From positions 138,914 through 202,913 of the IMG/VR virus record IMGVR_UViG_3300033273_000374: a stretch of 64,000 nt of DNA. One strand, given 5' to 3'. Source of the stretch: a virus (Duplodnaviria; Heunggongvirae; Uroviricota; Caudoviricetes). A program made the position numbers and the translations under genes. The notes under the pieces were generated by a model. The model was not told the origin of the DNA. It searched no databases and saw only the letters and a program-made list of their open reading frames with translations. Positions 5,970 through 33,706 of this stretch are shown piece after piece; within the stretch, counting starts at the first letter, position 1; each line of letters opens with the position of its first letter.

Positions 5970-5990
5970 GTTTAGTAATAGTAAAGTGTA

Positions 5991-6380
5991 TTAGACGATT
6001 GCGTCTGCCAATGCACTTGTTGGACCACCTTGCTCAACTGTTGCTGAACTAAGGTCGATGCTGTCAACTGTGCCTAGTGCTCGTACTGCTGCTTGAATAA
6101 CAGTTGAAGCTGCAAAGTTGCCTACTGCTGTGTCTGTTGTAAGACGCTCAATGCCTACGATTTGACGTGTGTCTGAATCGTATAGTGGGCCTAGGTATAC
6201 GATTGTACCAAATGTACCTAGTAATGAGTAAACCTGTGCAAGTGTGCTTGCTGGGCCTGTCTTTCCACTTACGTCTGCTAGATAATCAATTTCGAGGTAT
6301 GTAATGTCTTCTGCACCTGCTCCCATTGAAACTGGGAAAGTAGGTGTTGATGTTGGGTGTACTCTTGTTAAGTCAGCCAT
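5991..6380 (-). CDS. Probable structural protein, paralogue of 6402-6821
   Basis: 129 aa; MADLTRVH, IQAAVRALG..D..DLS. Confidence 0.6.
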   Translation of the reverse strand: MADLTRVHPTSTPTFPVSMGAGAEDITYLEIDYLADVSGKTGPASTLAQVYSLLGTFGTIVYLGPLYDSDTRQIVGIERLTTDTAVGNFAASTVIQAAVRALGTVDSIDLSSATVEQGGPTSALADAIV

Positions 6381-9834: not shown

Positions 9835-9894
9835 TACCTAGCACCCGATTTAATTTATTTATCGTTAAATACAGTATACTTGGAGGAGTAGGAG

Positions 9895-10626
9895 ATGTCA
9901 ATACAAGATAACCCTGGCGGCCATTTCGCTGAATTGGCCCGTATAGCATACATGACAGAAAAAGAAAGTAGACCTATTGCTAAAAAGATGGGATATAAGA
10001 AAACAAAACTCATCGATCAAAACGGTGCAGAGTGTCTTTTTTTAGAAAATGACGACACACTGGTGTTAGCATTCCGTGGAACAGAGCCCAAAGAGTTCTC
10101 AGATATTAAAGCAGATCTCAAAGCATGGAAGCGTAAAAGTAAAACCTGGGGCATGGTCCACGCAGGTTTTTATGAATATCTCAATAAAATTTGGGAAAGT
10201 GTGTTAAGACACATCAACTACGGCGACAGAGAAACAAAAAAATTGTATATTTGTGGACACAGTCTTGGTGGTGCAATGGCCACACTTGCTGCAAGTCGTT
10301 TGCAAGATCGTGTGATAGGATGTTACACCTATGGATCGCCACGTGTGGGTGGTCGTGTTTGGCGTAGCAAATGCACATTTGAACATCACAGATACGTCAA
10401 CAACAATGACATTGTGCCACGTGTTCCATTTTGGATTATGGGTTTTAGACACTATGGCGAATTACACTATATCAATCATTATGGTAATATTCGTAAACTC
10501 ACAGCCTGGCAGAAGTGTAAAGATCAATGGCGTGGACGATTGAGAGCATGGCAAAAGCGTGAGTTCTTTGATGGTGCTCGAGATCACAGCATGGTTCAAT
10601 ACAGTAAAAAAATTAACAAGAGTTGA
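9895..10626 (+). CDS. Class 3 lipase (alpha/beta hydrolase)
   Basis: AFRGTE, VHAGF, GHSLGG nucleophile elbow, YGSPRVG, NNDIVP, DH; strong GGAGGAG RBS. Confidence 0.9.
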   Translation: MSIQDNPGGHFAELARIAYMTEKESRPIAKKMGYKKTKLIDQNGAECLFLENDDTLVLAFRGTEPKEFSDIKADLKAWKRKSKTWGMVHAGFYEYLNKIWESVLRHINYGDRETKKLYICGHSLGGAMATLAASRLQDRVIGCYTYGSPRVGGRVWRSKCTFEHHRYVNNNDIVPRVPFWIMGFRHYGELHYINHYGNIRKLTAWQKCKDQWRGRLRAWQKREFFDGARDHSMVQYSKKINKS

Positions 10627-16657: not shown

Positions 16658-17615
16658 GGCGTTTTCTCAACAGATTAATTTTTAAACTGTTTGATTGTTT
16701 TGCATCAAGTATGCTTTTGAGTGTAAACAGTTTACCATAACGCACAACAGCATCATTTACATCTTTAACATCGTTGTGCCATTCAGGAAAACTCACACTC
16801 CATCCATATTCTAATGCATCATCTATCAAACGTTGTCCTGCTCTATCTCTGTCCGGCACCAATATAACTTCTCTAGCCAATGTGTCAATGATTTGTGCTT
16901 GTTGTTCACTGCACTGATTGCTCATTATGCCCACACCACCTATGCACATTGCATCCAACAGTCCTTCAGTGACCACACAAAACCTAGCATTAGACAACTG
17001 ATTATCAATACCATACACATAGCCACTGTCATGGTTAGTAAAGTATTTGGGTCTACCTGTATCGTCTGTGGTCCTTGCACTGAATCCTATAACTTCGTTG
17101 TTCCAAGTGAAAGGCACAATGATGCGTTTCCACATGCCTGCAGGTTTGCTGTTGCTCCATAATAATTTATGCACAGGCAAACATCTGTCAACAGCATACT
17201 GTTGTATGTGTTTGGGCGCACGATCTAATGCTACCACTCCTTCTGGCAATGGTCGAGGTTTAAACTCTACAACAATAGCATCTTCGTCTGGTTCCAACAG
17301 TTCAACTGTGTCTTTGATACGCAGTGCTTCAATGTTTAGCATCTGTCGTGTGTTTTCGTCAATGCCCAACCATGTAAGCAGTTTGCGCAGTTTAAAACTG
17401 ATGTGCCGGCCGGGCTGCCAGCCTGTTTTAAATCCACAGTTGAAACAGTGATAACTCACAGCATCACCATTCATTATCACACCGCCTCTGCCTCTACGAT
17501 CTGTGCTTTCGCCATTGTGATGACAGCATACAGCATTAAACGAAATCCAACCACCACTGCTGGTTTTACGCTTGCCAGGCAACGCATCAAATACACTTTG
17601 TTGTATACTATTCAT
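16650..17615 (-). CDS. 61: DNA primase (T4 gp61-like)
   Basis: Zn-binding CC..H / HCFNC, TEGLLDA TOPRIM, PDRD, KDVND. Confidence 0.9.
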   Translation of the reverse strand: MNSIQQSVFDALPGKRKTSSGGWISFNAVCCHHNGESTDRRGRGGVIMNGDAVSYHCFNCGFKTGWQPGRHISFKLRKLLTWLGIDENTRQMLNIEALRIKDTVELLEPDEDAIVVEFKPRPLPEGVVALDRAPKHIQQYAVDRCLPVHKLLWSNSKPAGMWKRIIVPFTWNNEVIGFSARTTDDTGRPKYFTNHDSGYVYGIDNQLSNARFCVVTEGLLDAMCIGGVGIMSNQCSEQQAQIIDTLAREVILVPDRDRAGQRLIDDALEYGWSVSFPEWHNDVKDVNDAVVRYGKLFTLKSILDAKQSNSLKINLLRKRLG

Positions 17616-29966: not shown

Positions 29967-30600
29967 GAATTGCCTCTGCTATCCGTTGATGTCCTAGTTC
30001 TAACGGATGACCGCCTGGTCCTTTGGGTGCATCTCCCATTATTTCTACCATTGAAGTATCGGGCCATCCTACAAACGCTGCGATATCTATCATAGAAATA
30101 AGGTCATCTGCTTTGTGATCCAATGTATGTATTAGATTCAAATTGTCAAATGTATTTACAAATCTATACTCAACATTGTTTTGTTTTAAAAAACTTTGCA
30201 ACAATACAACCTGTCTCACCCAGTTGCGAAATTCATACACAACTTCACTGTGCAAGGTTAGCCAACGTGCTATGCCTGGCCTATCAACATCTTTTGCTTG
30301 ATCCGGGTGCAACCAATAAGCAAGTTCTGAACATCCAGGCCATATGGTAAATGCACCATGCATGTCATTGAACTCTTGTCTGCCGCAACTGGTCCAACCT
30401 ACCACAACTAGATCTGGATCATGTTCAATAACAGCATTAATTGTGCGCTTTACAAAAAAATGATTGCTAGTGCCTCTGCGGCCTTCATTGATGACTTTGT
30501 AGCCCAATTGCTTGCCTAGCACATGCGGCCATGCATTATTACGATCTTCTAGTTCTTCACCATACGTGAAACTATCGCCTACTGTGTATAACTTTTTCAT
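29941..30600 (-). CDS. SGNH-hydrolase-like protein
   Basis: VGDSFTYG, GTSN, GWTS..R, GGHPLELGH. Confidence 0.75.
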   Translation of the reverse strand: MKKLYTVGDSFTYGEELEDRNNAWPHVLGKQLGYKVINEGRRGTSNHFFVKRTINAVIEHDPDLVVVGWTSCGRQEFNDMHGAFTIWPGCSELAYWLHPDQAKDVDRPGIARWLTLHSEVVYEFRNWVRQVVLLQSFLKQNNVEYRFVNTFDNLNLIHTLDHKADDLISMIDIAAFVGWPDTSMVEIMGDAPKGPGGHPLELGHQRIAEAIHAHINTGR

Positions 30601-30616
30601 AATATCCATTGTAGCA

Positions 30617-30654
30617 TAAAATGAGTGGCTAGTCTATTTCTAAACTAGCCACTC
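30617..30654 (-). terminator. Terminator-like hairpin overlapping a sigma70 promoter for the next gene
   Basis: GAGTGGCTAGT/ACTAGCCACTC 11-bp stem then ATTTT; TAGACT-17nt-TACAAT overlaps it. Confidence 0.65.
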
Positions 30655-30658
30655 TGTG

Positions 30659-30704
30659 TACAGTCGTGATTGGAGGAGAGAGGAGAGAGGAGCTCACGAC
30701 TGCA
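30659..30704 (-). ncRNA. Anti-Shine-Dalgarno hairpin RNA B
   Basis: CAGTCGTGA/TCACGACTG stem; 24-nt loop GCUCCUCUCUCCUCUCUCCUCCAA. Confidence 0.7.
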
Positions 30705-30743
30705 AACCGTTAAATTTTTGTGTTAGCCATAAGTAGCTTGGGT

Positions 30744-30822
30744 GAGTAGGGGGAAATTAATCCCCCTACCCGTTTCATCACAGTCCTCGTGGAAGAAGAG
30801 AGAGGGGAGGACTGTAAATGAA
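30744..30822 (-). ncRNA. C/U-loop hairpin RNA A plus GC-rich hairpin
   Basis: ACAGTCCTC/GAGGACTGT stem, loop CCCUCUCUCUUCUUCCAC; then GTAGGGGGA/TCCCCCTAC stem. Confidence 0.65.
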
Positions 30823-30828
30823 CTCTTG

Positions 30829-31743
30829 TTATGTCATCTTCATACAGGTTGTTTCTGCAAGTTTTTTCCAGTTGCTAGATATCCTCTTAAGGTCTGCAAG
30901 TTTGAGTGCCATACGCAAACTCATCTCACGAAACCTCTCAGGCTGGTCTTGCATAAAATTAATTATCTCTTGTTCTTCTTCCTTGCTAAAATTATATCCT
31001 TCAAACAAGTCTCCTTTGCGAGCAATTTGCTTGATGCGTAACAGTTTATCACGCATCGTGTCCAATGTAAGGTCTACATAGTGCGCACGACTCATTAGTG
31101 CTTCTAAGTGATCCTGTAACCTTTTGCTTTTTACATTCTCAAACTTGATGTTGGTGACAAAGCAAGCACTGCCCTTGAATACAAATGAATCAGGGATTCC
31201 TTCATTGCGTAATTTTACACTGTCCGCATTCCAGAAGATCTTACGCTTCTTTCCGCTGTCCAGTGCTGCTTTAAGTATGTTCAATGACAAGTCGTCCATT
31301 AGGACACTATCACAGTCATCAAACACCACCACGTTACCTTTACCACTGTATTCGTAAAGTTTGGCATACAATCCAAGTGCAGTCATTGCACCTTTGACAA
31401 CTTCAAACGGACGCTTTTGATTTGCTATATCACCAAAAATGTTTTGCCGTTCTAACGTGGTCATTACACCATAACTTTTACCAACGCCCGGTGGCCCGGT
31501 AACAATCATTGCACGGATGTCACCTGCCTGCAAACTAGCAGTCATGGTATTCAAGATCTCGAAACGCTCTTCAATTTCTTGCATCCGTGTTTCTTCATCT
31601 ACTAAATCATTTGCATTGGCATTTGGTAAGCCAATAATTTTACACTCAATACCTTTTTTATACAAACGTGTCTGAGCAGCCTTTACAGCGGCTTGTGTTT
31701 TGTAGCTCTTCTCAACACCTTTGTTATCTACCAGTTTAAACAT
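30829..31743 (-). CDS. AAA-family ATPase
   Basis: GPPGVGKS, VVFDDCD, LKAALD, VTN, ALMSR, SLR; start set at MFKLV after GGAGCGAGAG. Confidence 0.85.
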   Translation of the reverse strand: MFKLVDNKGVEKSYKTQAAVKAAQTRLYKKGIECKIIGLPNANANDLVDEETRMQEIEERFEILNTMTASLQAGDIRAMIVTGPPGVGKSYGVMTTLERQNIFGDIANQKRPFEVVKGAMTALGLYAKLYEYSGKGNVVVFDDCDSVLMDDLSLNILKAALDSGKKRKIFWNADSVKLRNEGIPDSFVFKGSACFVTNIKFENVKSKRLQDHLEALMSRAHYVDLTLDTMRDKLLRIKQIARKGDLFEGYNFSKEEEQEIINFMQDQPERFREMSLRMALKLADLKRISSNWKKLAETTCMKMT

Positions 31744-31773
31744 CTCTCGCTCCAACTGTTTAAATTTTAATTT

Positions 31774-31801
31774 ATAATAGCATCTTTTACAGATGTGTCA
31801 A
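31774..31801 (-). promoter_or_regulatory. Early promoter
   Basis: GGTTGACA-16nt(ending TGC)-TATTAT. Confidence 0.8.
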
Positions 31802-31807
31802 CCTAAT

Positions 31808-32164
31808 TTATGCACGACCTGTAAGATAACGTGGTCCTGTCCATGCAACAGTGTAACCACCGTCTAAGATATTACCACGTGGAGCGTTTCTTGCTGGCGC
31901 ATTAAAACCAGCTGGTTTAAGGATATCACCTTTATTAAACTTTTTGTCATTGTCTGTGGCAACAACAAAACCCCAAACACTACCACCATTGCGGTTGGTA
32001 ATTTTAATGTATTTGGAACCTTTGGTGTATCCAAGCTCTGAATCAAAATCTGCAACTCTTTGAACATCACGATCGCTAAGTTTGTTTGTTTTGGAACACT
32101 TTTTGATCCAGTTAATGTAATCAGCTACGATATCGTTTAACAGTTGATCAATTTGCTGTTGCAT
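31808..32164 (-). CDS. Conserved phage early protein
   Basis: KYIKI..GSVWGFV..GDILKPA..APA.N..RGNI..WTGP.YL; start MQQQI after GGAGAGAGG. Confidence 0.75.
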   Translation of the reverse strand: MQQQIDQLLNDIVADYINWIKKCSKTNKLSDRDVQRVADFDSELGYTKGSKYIKITNRNGGSVWGFVVATDNDKKFNKGDILKPAGFNAPARNAPRGNILDGGYTVAWTGPRYLTGRA

Positions 32165-32196
32165 TTCCTCTCTCCATGCATTTATCTTATACATAC

Positions 32197-32224
32197 ATAA
32201 TAGCAAATTGTGCCAATTAGTCAA
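32197..32224 (-). promoter_or_regulatory. Early promoter
   Basis: GGTTGACT-16nt(ending TGC)-TATTAT. Confidence 0.8.
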
Positions 32225-32375
32225 CCTCTTTTTTTGGTTTTTTCTTATTTTTTCCCCAGGCACTGGTATAAACTTCTTCGCTACGTGCACCTGGTTCGCA
32301 CACAGTGATTTTACCACCTTTGGCAAGATACTCTTTAACAGCAGCTTCGTAATCTTCGCGTTCATTTTTATCCAT
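32217..32375 (-). CDS. 52-aa protein resembling the SutA RNAP-binding domain
   Basis: MDKNEREDYEAAVKEYLAKGGKITVC...; AGGAG RBS. Confidence 0.6.
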   Translation of the reverse strand: MDKNEREDYEAAVKEYLAKGGKITVCEPGARSEEVYTSAWGKNKKKPKKEVD

Positions 32376-32386
32376 TGGTTTTTCTC

Positions 32387-32518
32387 CTAGTGTTTTCCGG
32401 TACGAACAGGCAATCCCTGATTCATATAGTCGTTGCGCACCGACAAAATCTGTGCTGGTGTCATGTATTCCCACACCAGCAGTTTGCCGTCTGGCATTGC
32501 TATTTCTAACCAATACAT
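32387..32518 (-). CDS. 43-aa early protein
   Basis: Hand translation MYWLEIAMPDGKLLVWEYM...; AAGGAG RBS and own promoter. Confidence 0.65.
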   Translation of the reverse strand: MYWLEIAMPDGKLLVWEYMTPAQILSVRNDYMNQGLPVRTGKH

Positions 32519-32548
32519 TACACACTCCTTGTTTGTTTAACTATACAT

Positions 32549-32576
32549 ACAATAGCATAAATTGCTAGACTGTCAA
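32549..32576 (-). promoter_or_regulatory. Early promoter
   Basis: TTGACA-16nt(ending TGC)-TATTGT. Confidence 0.8.
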
Positions 32577-32579
32577 TCT

Positions 32580-32921
32580 TTATGAACCAGCAATCATTCT
32601 AAAACTGCCATCTTCTTGTAAACGGAAACCTTCAACAAACACATGCCAGTCACCGCAATGACGTTTGGCTGATTGGAAAACTGATTCTGCTGCTCTCCAA
32701 AAACCTTCTACAGTGTTTTCATGAGTGAAGTGGCTGAACTCACATTCTTGCATGTTCTCGTCAAATGCACGATATGTAATGCGATAACATTCACGCTCTT
32801 CGTCAACAACCTTATCGCTGAGGTTAACAATCTCTTCGTCAAACATGCTCCAGCGAGTCTCAAATCCTAACTCGTTGCGCTTGTTGTCTAAGTCTTCGAT
32901 AACTGCGTATAAGTTGTTCAT
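32580..32921 (-). CDS. Hypothetical early protein
   Basis: 113 aa; C-term DWHVFVEGF...F..IAGS; RBS GGAGAGAG. Confidence 0.7.
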   Translation of the reverse strand: MNNLYAVIEDLDNKRNELGFETRWSMFDEEIVNLSDKVVDEERECYRITYRAFDENMQECEFSHFTHENTVEGFWRAAESVFQSAKRHCGDWHVFVEGFRLQEDGSFRMIAGS

Positions 32922-32948
32922 TTCTCTCTCCGTTTTTTAACTATACAC

Positions 32949-32976
32949 ATATTAGCATGTATGTGTATACTGTCAA
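32949..32976 (-). promoter_or_regulatory. Early promoter with upstream A-tracts
   Basis: GGTTGACA-16nt(ending TGC)-TAATAT. Confidence 0.8.
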
Positions 32977-33110
32977 CCTAATAAATGCATTTTTTTGAAA
33001 CTTTTTTTTCTGCTACTATATCATGTATCAAAAACATTGTTTAGATTGAGAAAACCTACAATATTGTGTAGATAACTTTTTTTTATTTTTTTTTGCCTTT
33101 TTGTAGGATA

Positions 33111-33308
33111 TTATACCAGTAAAAATGCTAGAATACCCGCAACAACCACATATGGCATCAACTTCCAGCCCAATCTAAAACCAGCTATTATTACTGCAAC
33201 AACAACACCAATGGTAAAGCCCATTGCTAATAGGTGCAGTATCAAATCCATTTTGTCATACACTAGCTCAAATGTGCCTTGATCACTTACTTGGAATTCC
33301 ATCTTCAA
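33111..33308 (-). CDS. Small membrane protein
   Basis: Two hydrophobic segments; start uncertain. Confidence 0.6.
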   Translation of the reverse strand: MKMEFQVSDQGTFELVYDKMDLILHLLAMGFTIGVVVAVIIAGFRLGWKLMPYVVVAGILAFLLV

Positions 33309-33483
33309 ACCTTCCTTCTACACTCTTGATGTGTTTGCATTTGCGACGTGCAACACAGTTACAATCAAACCCGCTATCTAGCATGGTAACAGTGTACACA
33401 TCGCCCTTGCTGCCTGTTACAGGCCATTGCACACCCACAAATGGGTGTCCTTTTGTATTTACTATCTCACTAGGGTGAGCCAT
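33283..33483 (-). CDS. SWIM zinc-finger protein
   Basis: GSKGDVYTV..FDCNC...CKHI. Confidence 0.8.
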   Translation of the reverse strand: MAHPSEIVNTKGHPFVGVQWPVTGSKGDVYTVTMLDSGFDCNCVARRKCKHIKSVEGRFEDGIPSK

Positions 33484-33641
33484 TAAGCAGTAACCTTGCC
33501 AACAACAACACCAGCACCGTTAATTTTACCGAGAAAGTTAATGTGTGAATTGAACTGCTGAGCCAACACATTCATGTCTGCAGTTTTTCTAATTTTGCGC
33601 ATTGCATCTAATGCGTTTTGCAATTCTACTGAATAAGTCAT
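33483..33641 (-). CDS. 52-aa early protein
   Basis: Start set at MTYSVE downstream of promoter; AGAGAGA leader. Confidence 0.55.
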   Translation of the reverse strand: MTYSVELQNALDAMRKIRKTADMNVLAQQFNSHINFLGKINGAGVVVGKVTA

Positions 33642-33678
33642 TGCTTTATTCTCTCTACTGTTTTTTTCCAACATATAT

Positions 33679-33706
33679 ACAATAGCACAACAACACATGT
33701 TGTCAA
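33679..33706 (-). promoter_or_regulatory. Early promoter
   Basis: GGTTGACA-16nt(ending TGC)-TATTGT. Confidence 0.8.

Follow-up and report, generated by a model that had tools for sequence, protein, structure and literature searches.

We analyzed a 64,000-nt stretch of DNA (the window; bases 138,914–202,913 of the 202,913-bp IMG/VR virus record IMGVR_UViG_3300033273_000374), with emphasis on the 3' untranslated region (UTR) of an early gene for an AAA-type ATPase. This 3' UTR holds a hairpin element with large C/U loops, and these loops are complementary to the ribosome-binding regions of the ATPase gene itself and of several neighboring early genes. In related phages, the stems of the element covary, and its loop changes together with the leader of the ATPase gene from clade to clade. 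Positions refer to the window unless stated otherwise.

The ATPase gene is located on the minus strand (30829–31743) and encodes a 304-amino-acid protein of the T4 nrdC.10-like family, PHROG 1250. The protein matched phrog_1250, which has no assigned function, with an E value of 4.8e-78, and its match to Pfam AAA_16 was weak. Its tblastn matches comprised features annotated as nrdC.10 in Acinetobacter phage Acj9, and gp126 of phage PA5oct. The record has a G+C content of 39.7% and a completeness of ~57% as estimated by CheckV. The nearest matches of its UvsW-type helicase were those of the jumbo phages Phosso, Atu_ph07, and PA5oct (51–55% identity). The nearest cultured relative is PA5oct, with an ATPase identity of 47.5%, and a blastn search of the 3.5-kb region against isolate phages gave no match.

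Five near-identical sigma-70-type early promoters of the form (GG)TTGAC(A/T)-N13-TGCTAnnnT are located upstream of the ATPase gene on the same strand (31774–33706), with -35 boxes starting at 33706, 32976, 32576, 32224, and 31801, and drive short early genes. The terminator scan of this minus-strand cluster revealed no terminator-like site outside coding sequences before position 30623; two short sites were found, both inside open reading frames (ORFs). Because there is no convincing terminator between the five promoters, their transcripts should be co-terminal at 30623. All five early transcripts should thus run to the hairpins behind the ATPase gene.

Structure and conservation of the hairpin element

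Two units, each consisting of a C/U-loop hairpin followed by a second hairpin, occupy positions 30814–30623 of the minus strand. The hairpin of unit A (30781–30814) is evident from the sequence and from the minimum free energy (MFE) fold. It has an 8-bp stem, formed by CAGTCCTC (30814–30807) and GAGGACTG (30788–30781), and an 18-nt C/U loop (30806–30789; DNA CCCTCTCTCTTCTTCCAC, RNA CCCUCUCUCUUCUUCCAC). Unit A is closed by a G/C-rich hairpin of 11 bp with the loop UUAAUU (30744–30771, minus strand, MFE fold), which has no U tract behind it and received no terminator call in the terminator scan. The hairpin of unit B (30661–30702), which is the conserved core element, has a 9-bp stem formed by CAGTCGTGA (30702–30694) and TCACGACTG (30669–30661), and a 24-nt C/U loop, GCTCCTCTCTCCTCTCTCCTCCAA (30693–30670). 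It is followed by a terminator-like hairpin of 14 bp (30623–30654, minus strand, terminator scan) with the loop UUUAGAAAUAGA and the tail AUUUUAU (DNA ATTTTAT), corresponding to the predicted 3' end of the nested early transcripts. The original prediction, made from the letters of the window, had placed two tandem hairpin units with C/U loops behind the ATPase gene, and everything it stated about their sequence was confirmed on the minus strand.

The MFE fold of the 226-nt segment 30610–30835 contained all four hairpins and had an energy of -87 kcal/mol, compared to -46.6 ± 4.4 kcal/mol for shuffled sequences (z = -9.25; none of 200 shuffles as good). Loops A and B are the top two C/T tracts by length in the whole 202,913-bp record. 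Both hold CCUCC/CUCCU cores, which can pair with any GGAG-type Shine-Dalgarno (SD) sequence. A covariance model built from unit-B homologues recognized unit A (30724–30821, 22.8 bits, E 0.011), which identifies unit A as a diverged duplicate of unit B. A coding reading of the loops was rejected, as there is no minus-strand ORF of at least 40 amino acids between the ATPase stop codon and the next gene, and the loop lengths (17–25 nt) are not multiples of three. The search of the 64-kb window against Rfam 15 gave no match at the gathering score. The best sub-threshold match was SSRC10 (23.5 bits vs a threshold of 56, E 0.037), which is driven by generic hairpins.

Related loci were collected by scanning IMG/VR with the ATPase (47 loci, 53–99% identity) and by a DNA-pattern scan, which added two more; they are given below with L numbers. 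In every locus of the nearer clades (L002–L015, L017, L024, L047, L052, and L060), the ATPase stop codon is followed by a pyrimidine-loop hairpin and then by a terminator hairpin. At least 13 distinct relatives have the element behind their orthologue of the ATPase gene. Each record contains it only once, and this copy invariably lies where the ATPase transcription unit ends.

The stems of the hairpins vary among these relatives. The variants include CAGUCGUGA/UCACGACUG, GGGCCGCGA/UCGCGGCCC, and GCUGUAUC/GAUACAGU, as well as UUUAGUAUC/GAUACUAAA, AACUGCACC/GGUGCAGUU, and GAACCGCG/CGCGGUUC. RNAalifold detected compensatory changes in 17 of 24 base pairs of a plain MAFFT alignment. In an alignment fitted to the covariance model (A3), 98.2% of the cells were paired, compared to 76% in shuffles and 30–42% when the partner columns were slid. 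Changes on both sides of the helix were present in 18 of the 24 pairs of A3, and none of 500 shuffles was as good. Ten of the 11 pairs of helix 1 (the unit B stem) and 8 of the 13 pairs of helix 2 (the terminator) changed in this way. These helix-keeping compensatory changes across homologues identify the element as a structured functional RNA. Folding and covariation across relatives had been proposed in the original prediction as a check, and both came out in its favor.

The stems of the aligned relatives contain ~35 G·U cells, which would be A·C mismatches if read from the other strand. The ATPase-sense strand is therefore the functional one, and the opposite reading, in which the loops would be GA-rich SD mimics, was rejected on this ground.

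Unit A is confined to the lineage of the window (the window, L002/L003, L004, and L060). Its stem has changed with compensation in L004 (CAGCCCUC/GAGGGCUG), L002, and L060. In L060 (~5990–6040), a different hairpin takes the place of the second hairpin of unit A. One of its arms is a GA tract and the other the CU complement of that tract (AGAAGAGAAG/CUUCUCUUCU), so that the CU tract is masked internally. The UTRs of gp126 in PA5oct (L049; 2140–2165 and 3316–3360) contain no pyrimidine-loop hairpin; they share a 6-nt GUAGCA/UGCUAC match only, which lies inside the terminator stem and was not counted as an instance. The element thus seems to be confined to the uncultured clade.

Complementarity between the loops and early leaders

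In the window, four of the five promoter-proximal leaders contain GA repeats that are complementary to the loops, at the positions and with the pairing that the original prediction had described. The leader of the ATPase gene, UUGGAGCGAGAGA (31743–31755, minus strand), reaches the A of AUG and forms 12 bp, with one bulged C, with the 3' half of loop B. The energy calculated by duplexfold was -17.6 kcal/mol with the loop alone and -20.7 kcal/mol with the whole 3' UTR, and its own 3' UTR ranked first among 20 UTRs for this leader. The leader of the 118-amino-acid early gene (ATG at 32164), GGAGAGAGGA (32166–32175, minus strand), is perfectly complementary to loop B over 10 nt (-20.1 kcal/mol, rank 6 of 318). 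The corresponding values were -15.6 kcal/mol and rank 15 of 318 for the leader GGAGAGAG (32924–32931, minus strand) of the 113-amino-acid early gene (ATG at 32921). Among the four, pairing was weakest for the leader AGAGAGA (33650–33656, minus strand) of a 52-amino-acid early gene (ATG at 33641), with -12.3 kcal/mol and rank 51 of 318. The fifth promoter-proximal leader, that of the gene at 32518, is an ordinary AAGGAG.

The gene starts of the early cluster were curated, and starts elsewhere in the genome are crude calls. With these curated starts, the five promoter-proximal leaders ranked 6, 11, 15, 51, and 137 of 318 by loop-pairing energy (Mann-Whitney p = 0.0024), so that early leaders stood above other UTRs as had been predicted, and three of them were among the top 15 (hypergeometric p = 0.0008). 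GAGAGA occurs in only 12 of 315 crude gene leaders. Perfect loop complementarity of at least 7 nt was found genome-wide in 6 of 17 early-promoter leaders vs 20 of 298 others (Fisher p = 0.0012).

The longest matches to the loops in the genome are located outside the window, both immediately ahead of start codons. Loop A has a 14-nt perfect complement (G000:C1 110935–110922, minus strand) at the ribosome-binding site of a 674-amino-acid signal-peptide (secreted) protein. Loop B has a 13-nt perfect complement, including the UUGG end (G000:C1 125225–125213, minus strand), at the ribosome-binding site of a 153-amino-acid thermonuclease-like protein. Composition shuffles of the loops reached such lengths with p = 0.002 for loop A and p = 0.018 for loop B. 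Judged by these matches, the two genes are candidate trans targets. On the opposite strand of the window, the leader UUGGAGGAG (9880–9888, plus strand), upstream of a 243-amino-acid gene starting at 9895, is complementary over 9 nt to the 3' end of loop B.

In the relatives, the ATPase leader and the 3' element change together. In the middle clade, the loop starts with aCUUGCUCCUCC and the ATPase leader is GGAGGAGCAA or GAGGAGCAAG, paired with UUGCUCCUCC or CUUGCUCCUC, respectively. These pairs are perfect over 10 nt and include the non-pyrimidine segment UUGC/GCAA (L005, L006, L007, L013, L015, and L017; shuffle p 0.001–0.003). The more distant clade C3 is without the hairpin, and its anti-leader motif lies on the ATPase stop codon. 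In L021, UAG-UUACUCCU in the 3' UTR faces the leader AGGAGUAACUA, with an 11-nt match UAGUUACUCCU/AGGAGUAACUA (p 0.003). L023 has UUGCUCCUU in the 3' UTR and the leader AAGGAGCAA, and L016 and L019 combine the same 3' motif UUGCUCCUU with the leader AAGGAGUAA (12 bp with one G·U). Taken together, L021, L016/L019, and L023 form a series C-G, U·G, U-A. The G·U intermediate and the fixed inverted orientation of the two segments argue for RNA–RNA pairing rather than for a DNA-binding site.

Further leader/loop combinations were found at lower ATPase identity and in other loci. In the clade with ~55% ATPase identity, the hairpin loop ACCCUCCCAC faces the leader GUGGGAGG (pair CCUCCCAC/GUGGGAGG; L035, L038, and L043), and in L040 the 3' motif CUCCCACAGCA matches the leader UGCUGUGGGAG over 11 nt (p 0.001). 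In L026 and L028, UAGCUCCU immediately precedes the terminator that closes the unit, also where additional ORFs have been inserted, and the leader is UAGGAGCUA (pair UAGCUCCU/AGGAGCUA). In clades C3 and C4, the anti-leader motif is located outside any pyrimidine loop, and the complementarity to the leader is kept. In the lineage of the window and in L014, CU-dinucleotide loop repeats go with GGAGAGAG-type leaders; the pair GGAGAGAG(A)/CUCUCUCC was found in L002, L014, L052, and L060.

The paired leader segment always spans the SD region (-18 to -5), and the complementarity includes flanks that are specific for the clade, namely GCAA/UUGC, GUAACUA/UAGUUAC, and GUG/CAC. Because these flanks differ by clade while the tail of 16S rRNA is near-universal, mimicry of a common third partner is unlikely. 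The co-variation was also evident when one representative of each of 20 lineages was taken. The mean energy of own leader with own 3' UTR was -17.4 kcal/mol, compared to -14.2 ± 0.6 kcal/mol for permuted combinations (z = -5.25, 0 of 20,000).

Proposed mechanism and rival explanations

We consider it probable that an early transcription unit of this uncultured jumbo-phage clade ends in a conserved module of regulatory RNA, and that the loop of this module pairs with early leaders and limits their translation. Every early mRNA of the cluster would have at its end a hairpin, duplicated in the lineage of the window, that presents a single-stranded pyrimidine loop. This loop is the Watson-Crick complement of the SD region and flanks of the ATPase leader, and also of several neighboring early leaders. 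Pairing could be intramolecular, between the 5' and 3' UTRs as in icaR mRNA, and/or intermolecular, once a stable 3' piece accumulates as a 3'-UTR-derived small RNA (sRNA). In either case, the ribosome-binding site would be hidden. Translation of the early genes would then be limited or shut off, once the transcripts are complete (in cis) or once the 3' pieces are abundant (in trans).

The element may act in cis, in trans, or both. Action in cis by 5'–3' UTR pairing, a mode that the original prediction had not considered, may be favored by the fact that no other leader pairs as consistently as that of the ATPase gene itself, that all transcripts of the cluster would carry the element, and that the motif overlaps the stop codon in one clade. 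Other features point to action in trans. The display of a loop ahead of a terminator is a classical sRNA layout, and the unit has been duplicated in tandem in the lineage of the window. In L005, L012, and L013, early genes that are transcribed divergently from a promoter of their own also have the leader GAGGAGCAAG, the 10-nt complement. In 377 kb of five relatives, GAGGAGCAA occurs in 14 copies vs none for the reversed control, with most copies near the element and a few distal.

A more far-reaching version of the mechanism, which we put forward tentatively and regard as doubtful, is a translation timer common to the whole family. Stable 3' pieces would act as trans sRNAs that titrate SD-led early leaders, with specificity provided by the co-evolving flanks, and translation would pass to middle genes that are leaderless or have other kinds of leader, such as the gene directly behind the element. 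Such a system would be an RNA-only analogue of RegA and RegB of phage T4.

Several observations weigh against the proposed pairing. The ATPase leader of the window has no perfect match to the loop longer than 6 nt and reaches 12 bp only with a bulge. The low complexity of CU/GA tracts makes long matches fairly easy to obtain within one genome, as the original prediction had cautioned. In a unit-based control, random CU-repeat loops reached the observed match lengths with p = 0.023 for loop A and 0.11 for loop B. The case from the single genome is therefore moderate, suggestive but not decisive, and the decisive support is that from the relatives. Among these, complementarity to the own leader is weak in L008/L009, L010, L024, and L025. 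Moreover, the lineages are related, so that the permutation p-values overstate independence, and about four or five independent co-variation events underlie them. In the partial genomes of two relatives (110–117-kb records), the search for near-full-length complements of the loop returned only the loop's own opposite strand, which speaks against distant trans targets as a general feature.

One rival explanation is that low-complexity CU and GA tracts are complementary by accident and that the hairpins are mere terminators. Random CU-repeat loops do reach 13-nt matches in 11% of trials in the genome of the window, but chance would leave unexplained the covariation of the stems, the retention of the element across ATPase identities from 53% to 99%, the complementarity of other clades that is not of low complexity, and the outcome of the comparison of own with permuted leaders and 3' UTRs. 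We regard this explanation as scarcely credible. It is also unlikely, though less so, that the element is a protein-binding or 3'-end-stabilizing structure, with the loop as a landing pad for S1, Rho, Hfq, or a phage RNA-binding protein or as a shield of the 3' end, and with leader complementarity arising only incidentally from SD-like composition. Single strands rich in C/U and poor in G are indeed classical ligands of S1 and Rho, a hairpin-plus-terminator layout also stabilizes 3' ends, and leader complementarity is weak in some lineages. However, Rho would be needless with an intrinsic terminator directly behind the loop. The protein-based explanation also does not account for the 10–12-nt matches with non-pyrimidine flanks in four clades or for the C-G, U·G, U-A series, and in C3 and C4 the motif retains its complementarity to the leader although no pyrimidine loop contains it there.

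The two remaining alternatives accept pairing with SD regions but assign it another purpose. According to one, the element is a general anti-SD sponge that shuts off the host: an abundant mimic of the 16S tail would pair with any SD-led mRNA, including those of the host, and translation would shift to leaderless phage mRNAs. This would fit the CCUCC/CUCCU loop cores, the strong promoters ahead of the element, and the leaderless appearance of the gene directly behind it and of a few others. Nevertheless, we judge it quite improbable, because the complementarity reaches into clade-specific flanks outside the SD/anti-SD core, which a generic sponge would not need, own leaders pair better than the leaders of other phages, and titration of all host mRNAs from one locus would be stoichiometrically demanding. 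According to the other, pairing of the 3' end with the leader would form a positive closed loop. It would set the stop codon beside the start codon for re-initiation, or the duplex would shield GGAG leaders from a RegB-like nuclease, and the outcome would be activation or stabilization. In clade C3, the motif overlaps the stop codon (UAG-UUACUCCU), and a terminating ribosome would melt the duplex beside the freed SD; cleavage of GGAG leaders by RegB is known in T4-type phages. This reading is purely inferential, and SD masking is repressive in every characterized case known to us, including icaR, which makes activation very doubtful.

Our preferred explanation thus remains a loop aimed at the phage's own early leaders. 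This core idea of the original prediction gained support from the co-variation of loop and leader, including bases outside the SD core. Its further suggestion of a general block of SD-led host translation was weakened, as the clade-specific flanks point to specific phage leaders.

T4 silences early mRNAs via the ribosome-binding site or GGAG with proteins, the repressor RegA and the endonuclease RegB. The phage element would serve the same task in a related type of phage, with RNA doing the recognition. Bacterial sRNAs derived from 3' UTRs, such as CpxQ, SroC, and DapZ, act in trans on ribosome-binding regions. The phage element resembles them in having a seed upstream of the mRNA's own intrinsic terminator (~75–100 nt), and differs from them in its phage origin and in that the parent mRNA itself is apparently among the targets of the predicted RNA. 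The c4 antisense RNA of phages P1 and P7 has hairpin loops that pair with the ribosome-binding region of a gene on the same transcript, and co-variation of loop and target sets its specificity. It is likewise a phage RNA with loop/target co-variation between relatives, but c4 belongs to an immunity operon of temperate phages and precedes its target there, whereas the element described here closes a lytic early unit at its 3' end and has anti-SD pyrimidine loops. The original prediction had compared the loops with the cuckoo/CcsR and AbcR sRNAs. The resemblance in principle holds, as these sRNAs also present C/U-rich anti-SD loops on stem-loops, sometimes in tandem; membership in these families does not, as no Rfam covariance model matched. 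Moreover, cuckoo/CcsR and AbcR are independent, stress-regulated genes encoded by the host. To our knowledge, very few cases of bacterial 5'–3' UTR pairing have been studied experimentally.

One of these is icaR of Staphylococcus aureus. According to Ruiz de los Mozos et al. (2013; PMC3868564), the 3'-UTR motif UCCCCUG of this mRNA pairs with its own SD region, blocks initiation, and creates a substrate for RNase III. As in icaR, the phage 3' UTR contains a C/U-rich anti-SD motif, the SD region of the mRNA itself being its complement, and this complementarity extends over 8–12 nt in most lineages. Unlike in icaR, a covarying hairpin presents the phage motif in its loop, immediately ahead of the terminator. 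Across several clades, the motif is conserved and changes together with the leader, and one lineage has it in duplicate. It also matches the leaders of other genes, some of them on other transcripts, and its pairing is predicted from sequence.

A search of the literature found no paper describing this element, nor any phage 3'-terminal anti-SD element. Here, a broad clade of uncultured jumbo phages, with PA5oct, Atu_ph07, and Phosso as relatives, shows the principle in an element that is conserved and co-evolves with its target. This offers a concrete, testable hypothesis of how early-gene expression could be limited without a protein of the RegA/RegB type. Since the promoters are of the sigma-70 type, the system can be tested in Escherichia coli reporters without culturing the phage. 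The four or five natural leader/loop "codes" represent compensatory variants and could serve as orthogonal translational switches.

Neighboring features

The gene directly behind the element encodes an SGNH/GDSL hydrolase (DUF6071). Its start region (30598–30616, minus strand) has an extended -10 box, TGCTACAAT (30616–30608), followed 7 nt later by the ATG at 30600, and has neither an SD sequence nor a -35 box. The same layout, TGnTAnAAT followed after 5–7 nt by ATG, is present in L002, L005–L013, L015, and L017; L024 differs in having an ATAAT -10 box without TG. The hydrolase mRNA is probably leaderless, and without an SD sequence it would escape an anti-SD RNA. Layouts resembling this start were also seen at window positions 17615 and 314 and at genome position 99653.

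A AAAAAUUUGAC(N)G-like motif is located just 5' of unit B (30705–30717, minus strand). It is single in the window and forms a direct double repeat in L002 (~2375–2410) and L060 (~6120–6155). The motif resembles a -35 box with no -10 box at a suitable distance, and no promoter with both boxes was found ahead of unit B. The loop of the terminator hairpin, UUUAGAAAUAGA (30633–30644, minus strand), is near-invariant in L002–L024, L052, and L060, while its stem covaries freely. The possibility that this loop is a recurring promoter box (TTAGAAATAGAC) was rejected, as there are two exact copies only, one of them coding.

Within the early cluster, the 185-amino-acid ORF of the mechanical list with the start at 32365 (site 32197–32375, minus strand) is probably not the real gene; homologues and the promoter favor the 118-amino-acid form starting at 32164. 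A 52-amino-acid gene (32375–32217, minus strand) stops within TTGACT at 32224, the -35 box of the early promoter that follows.

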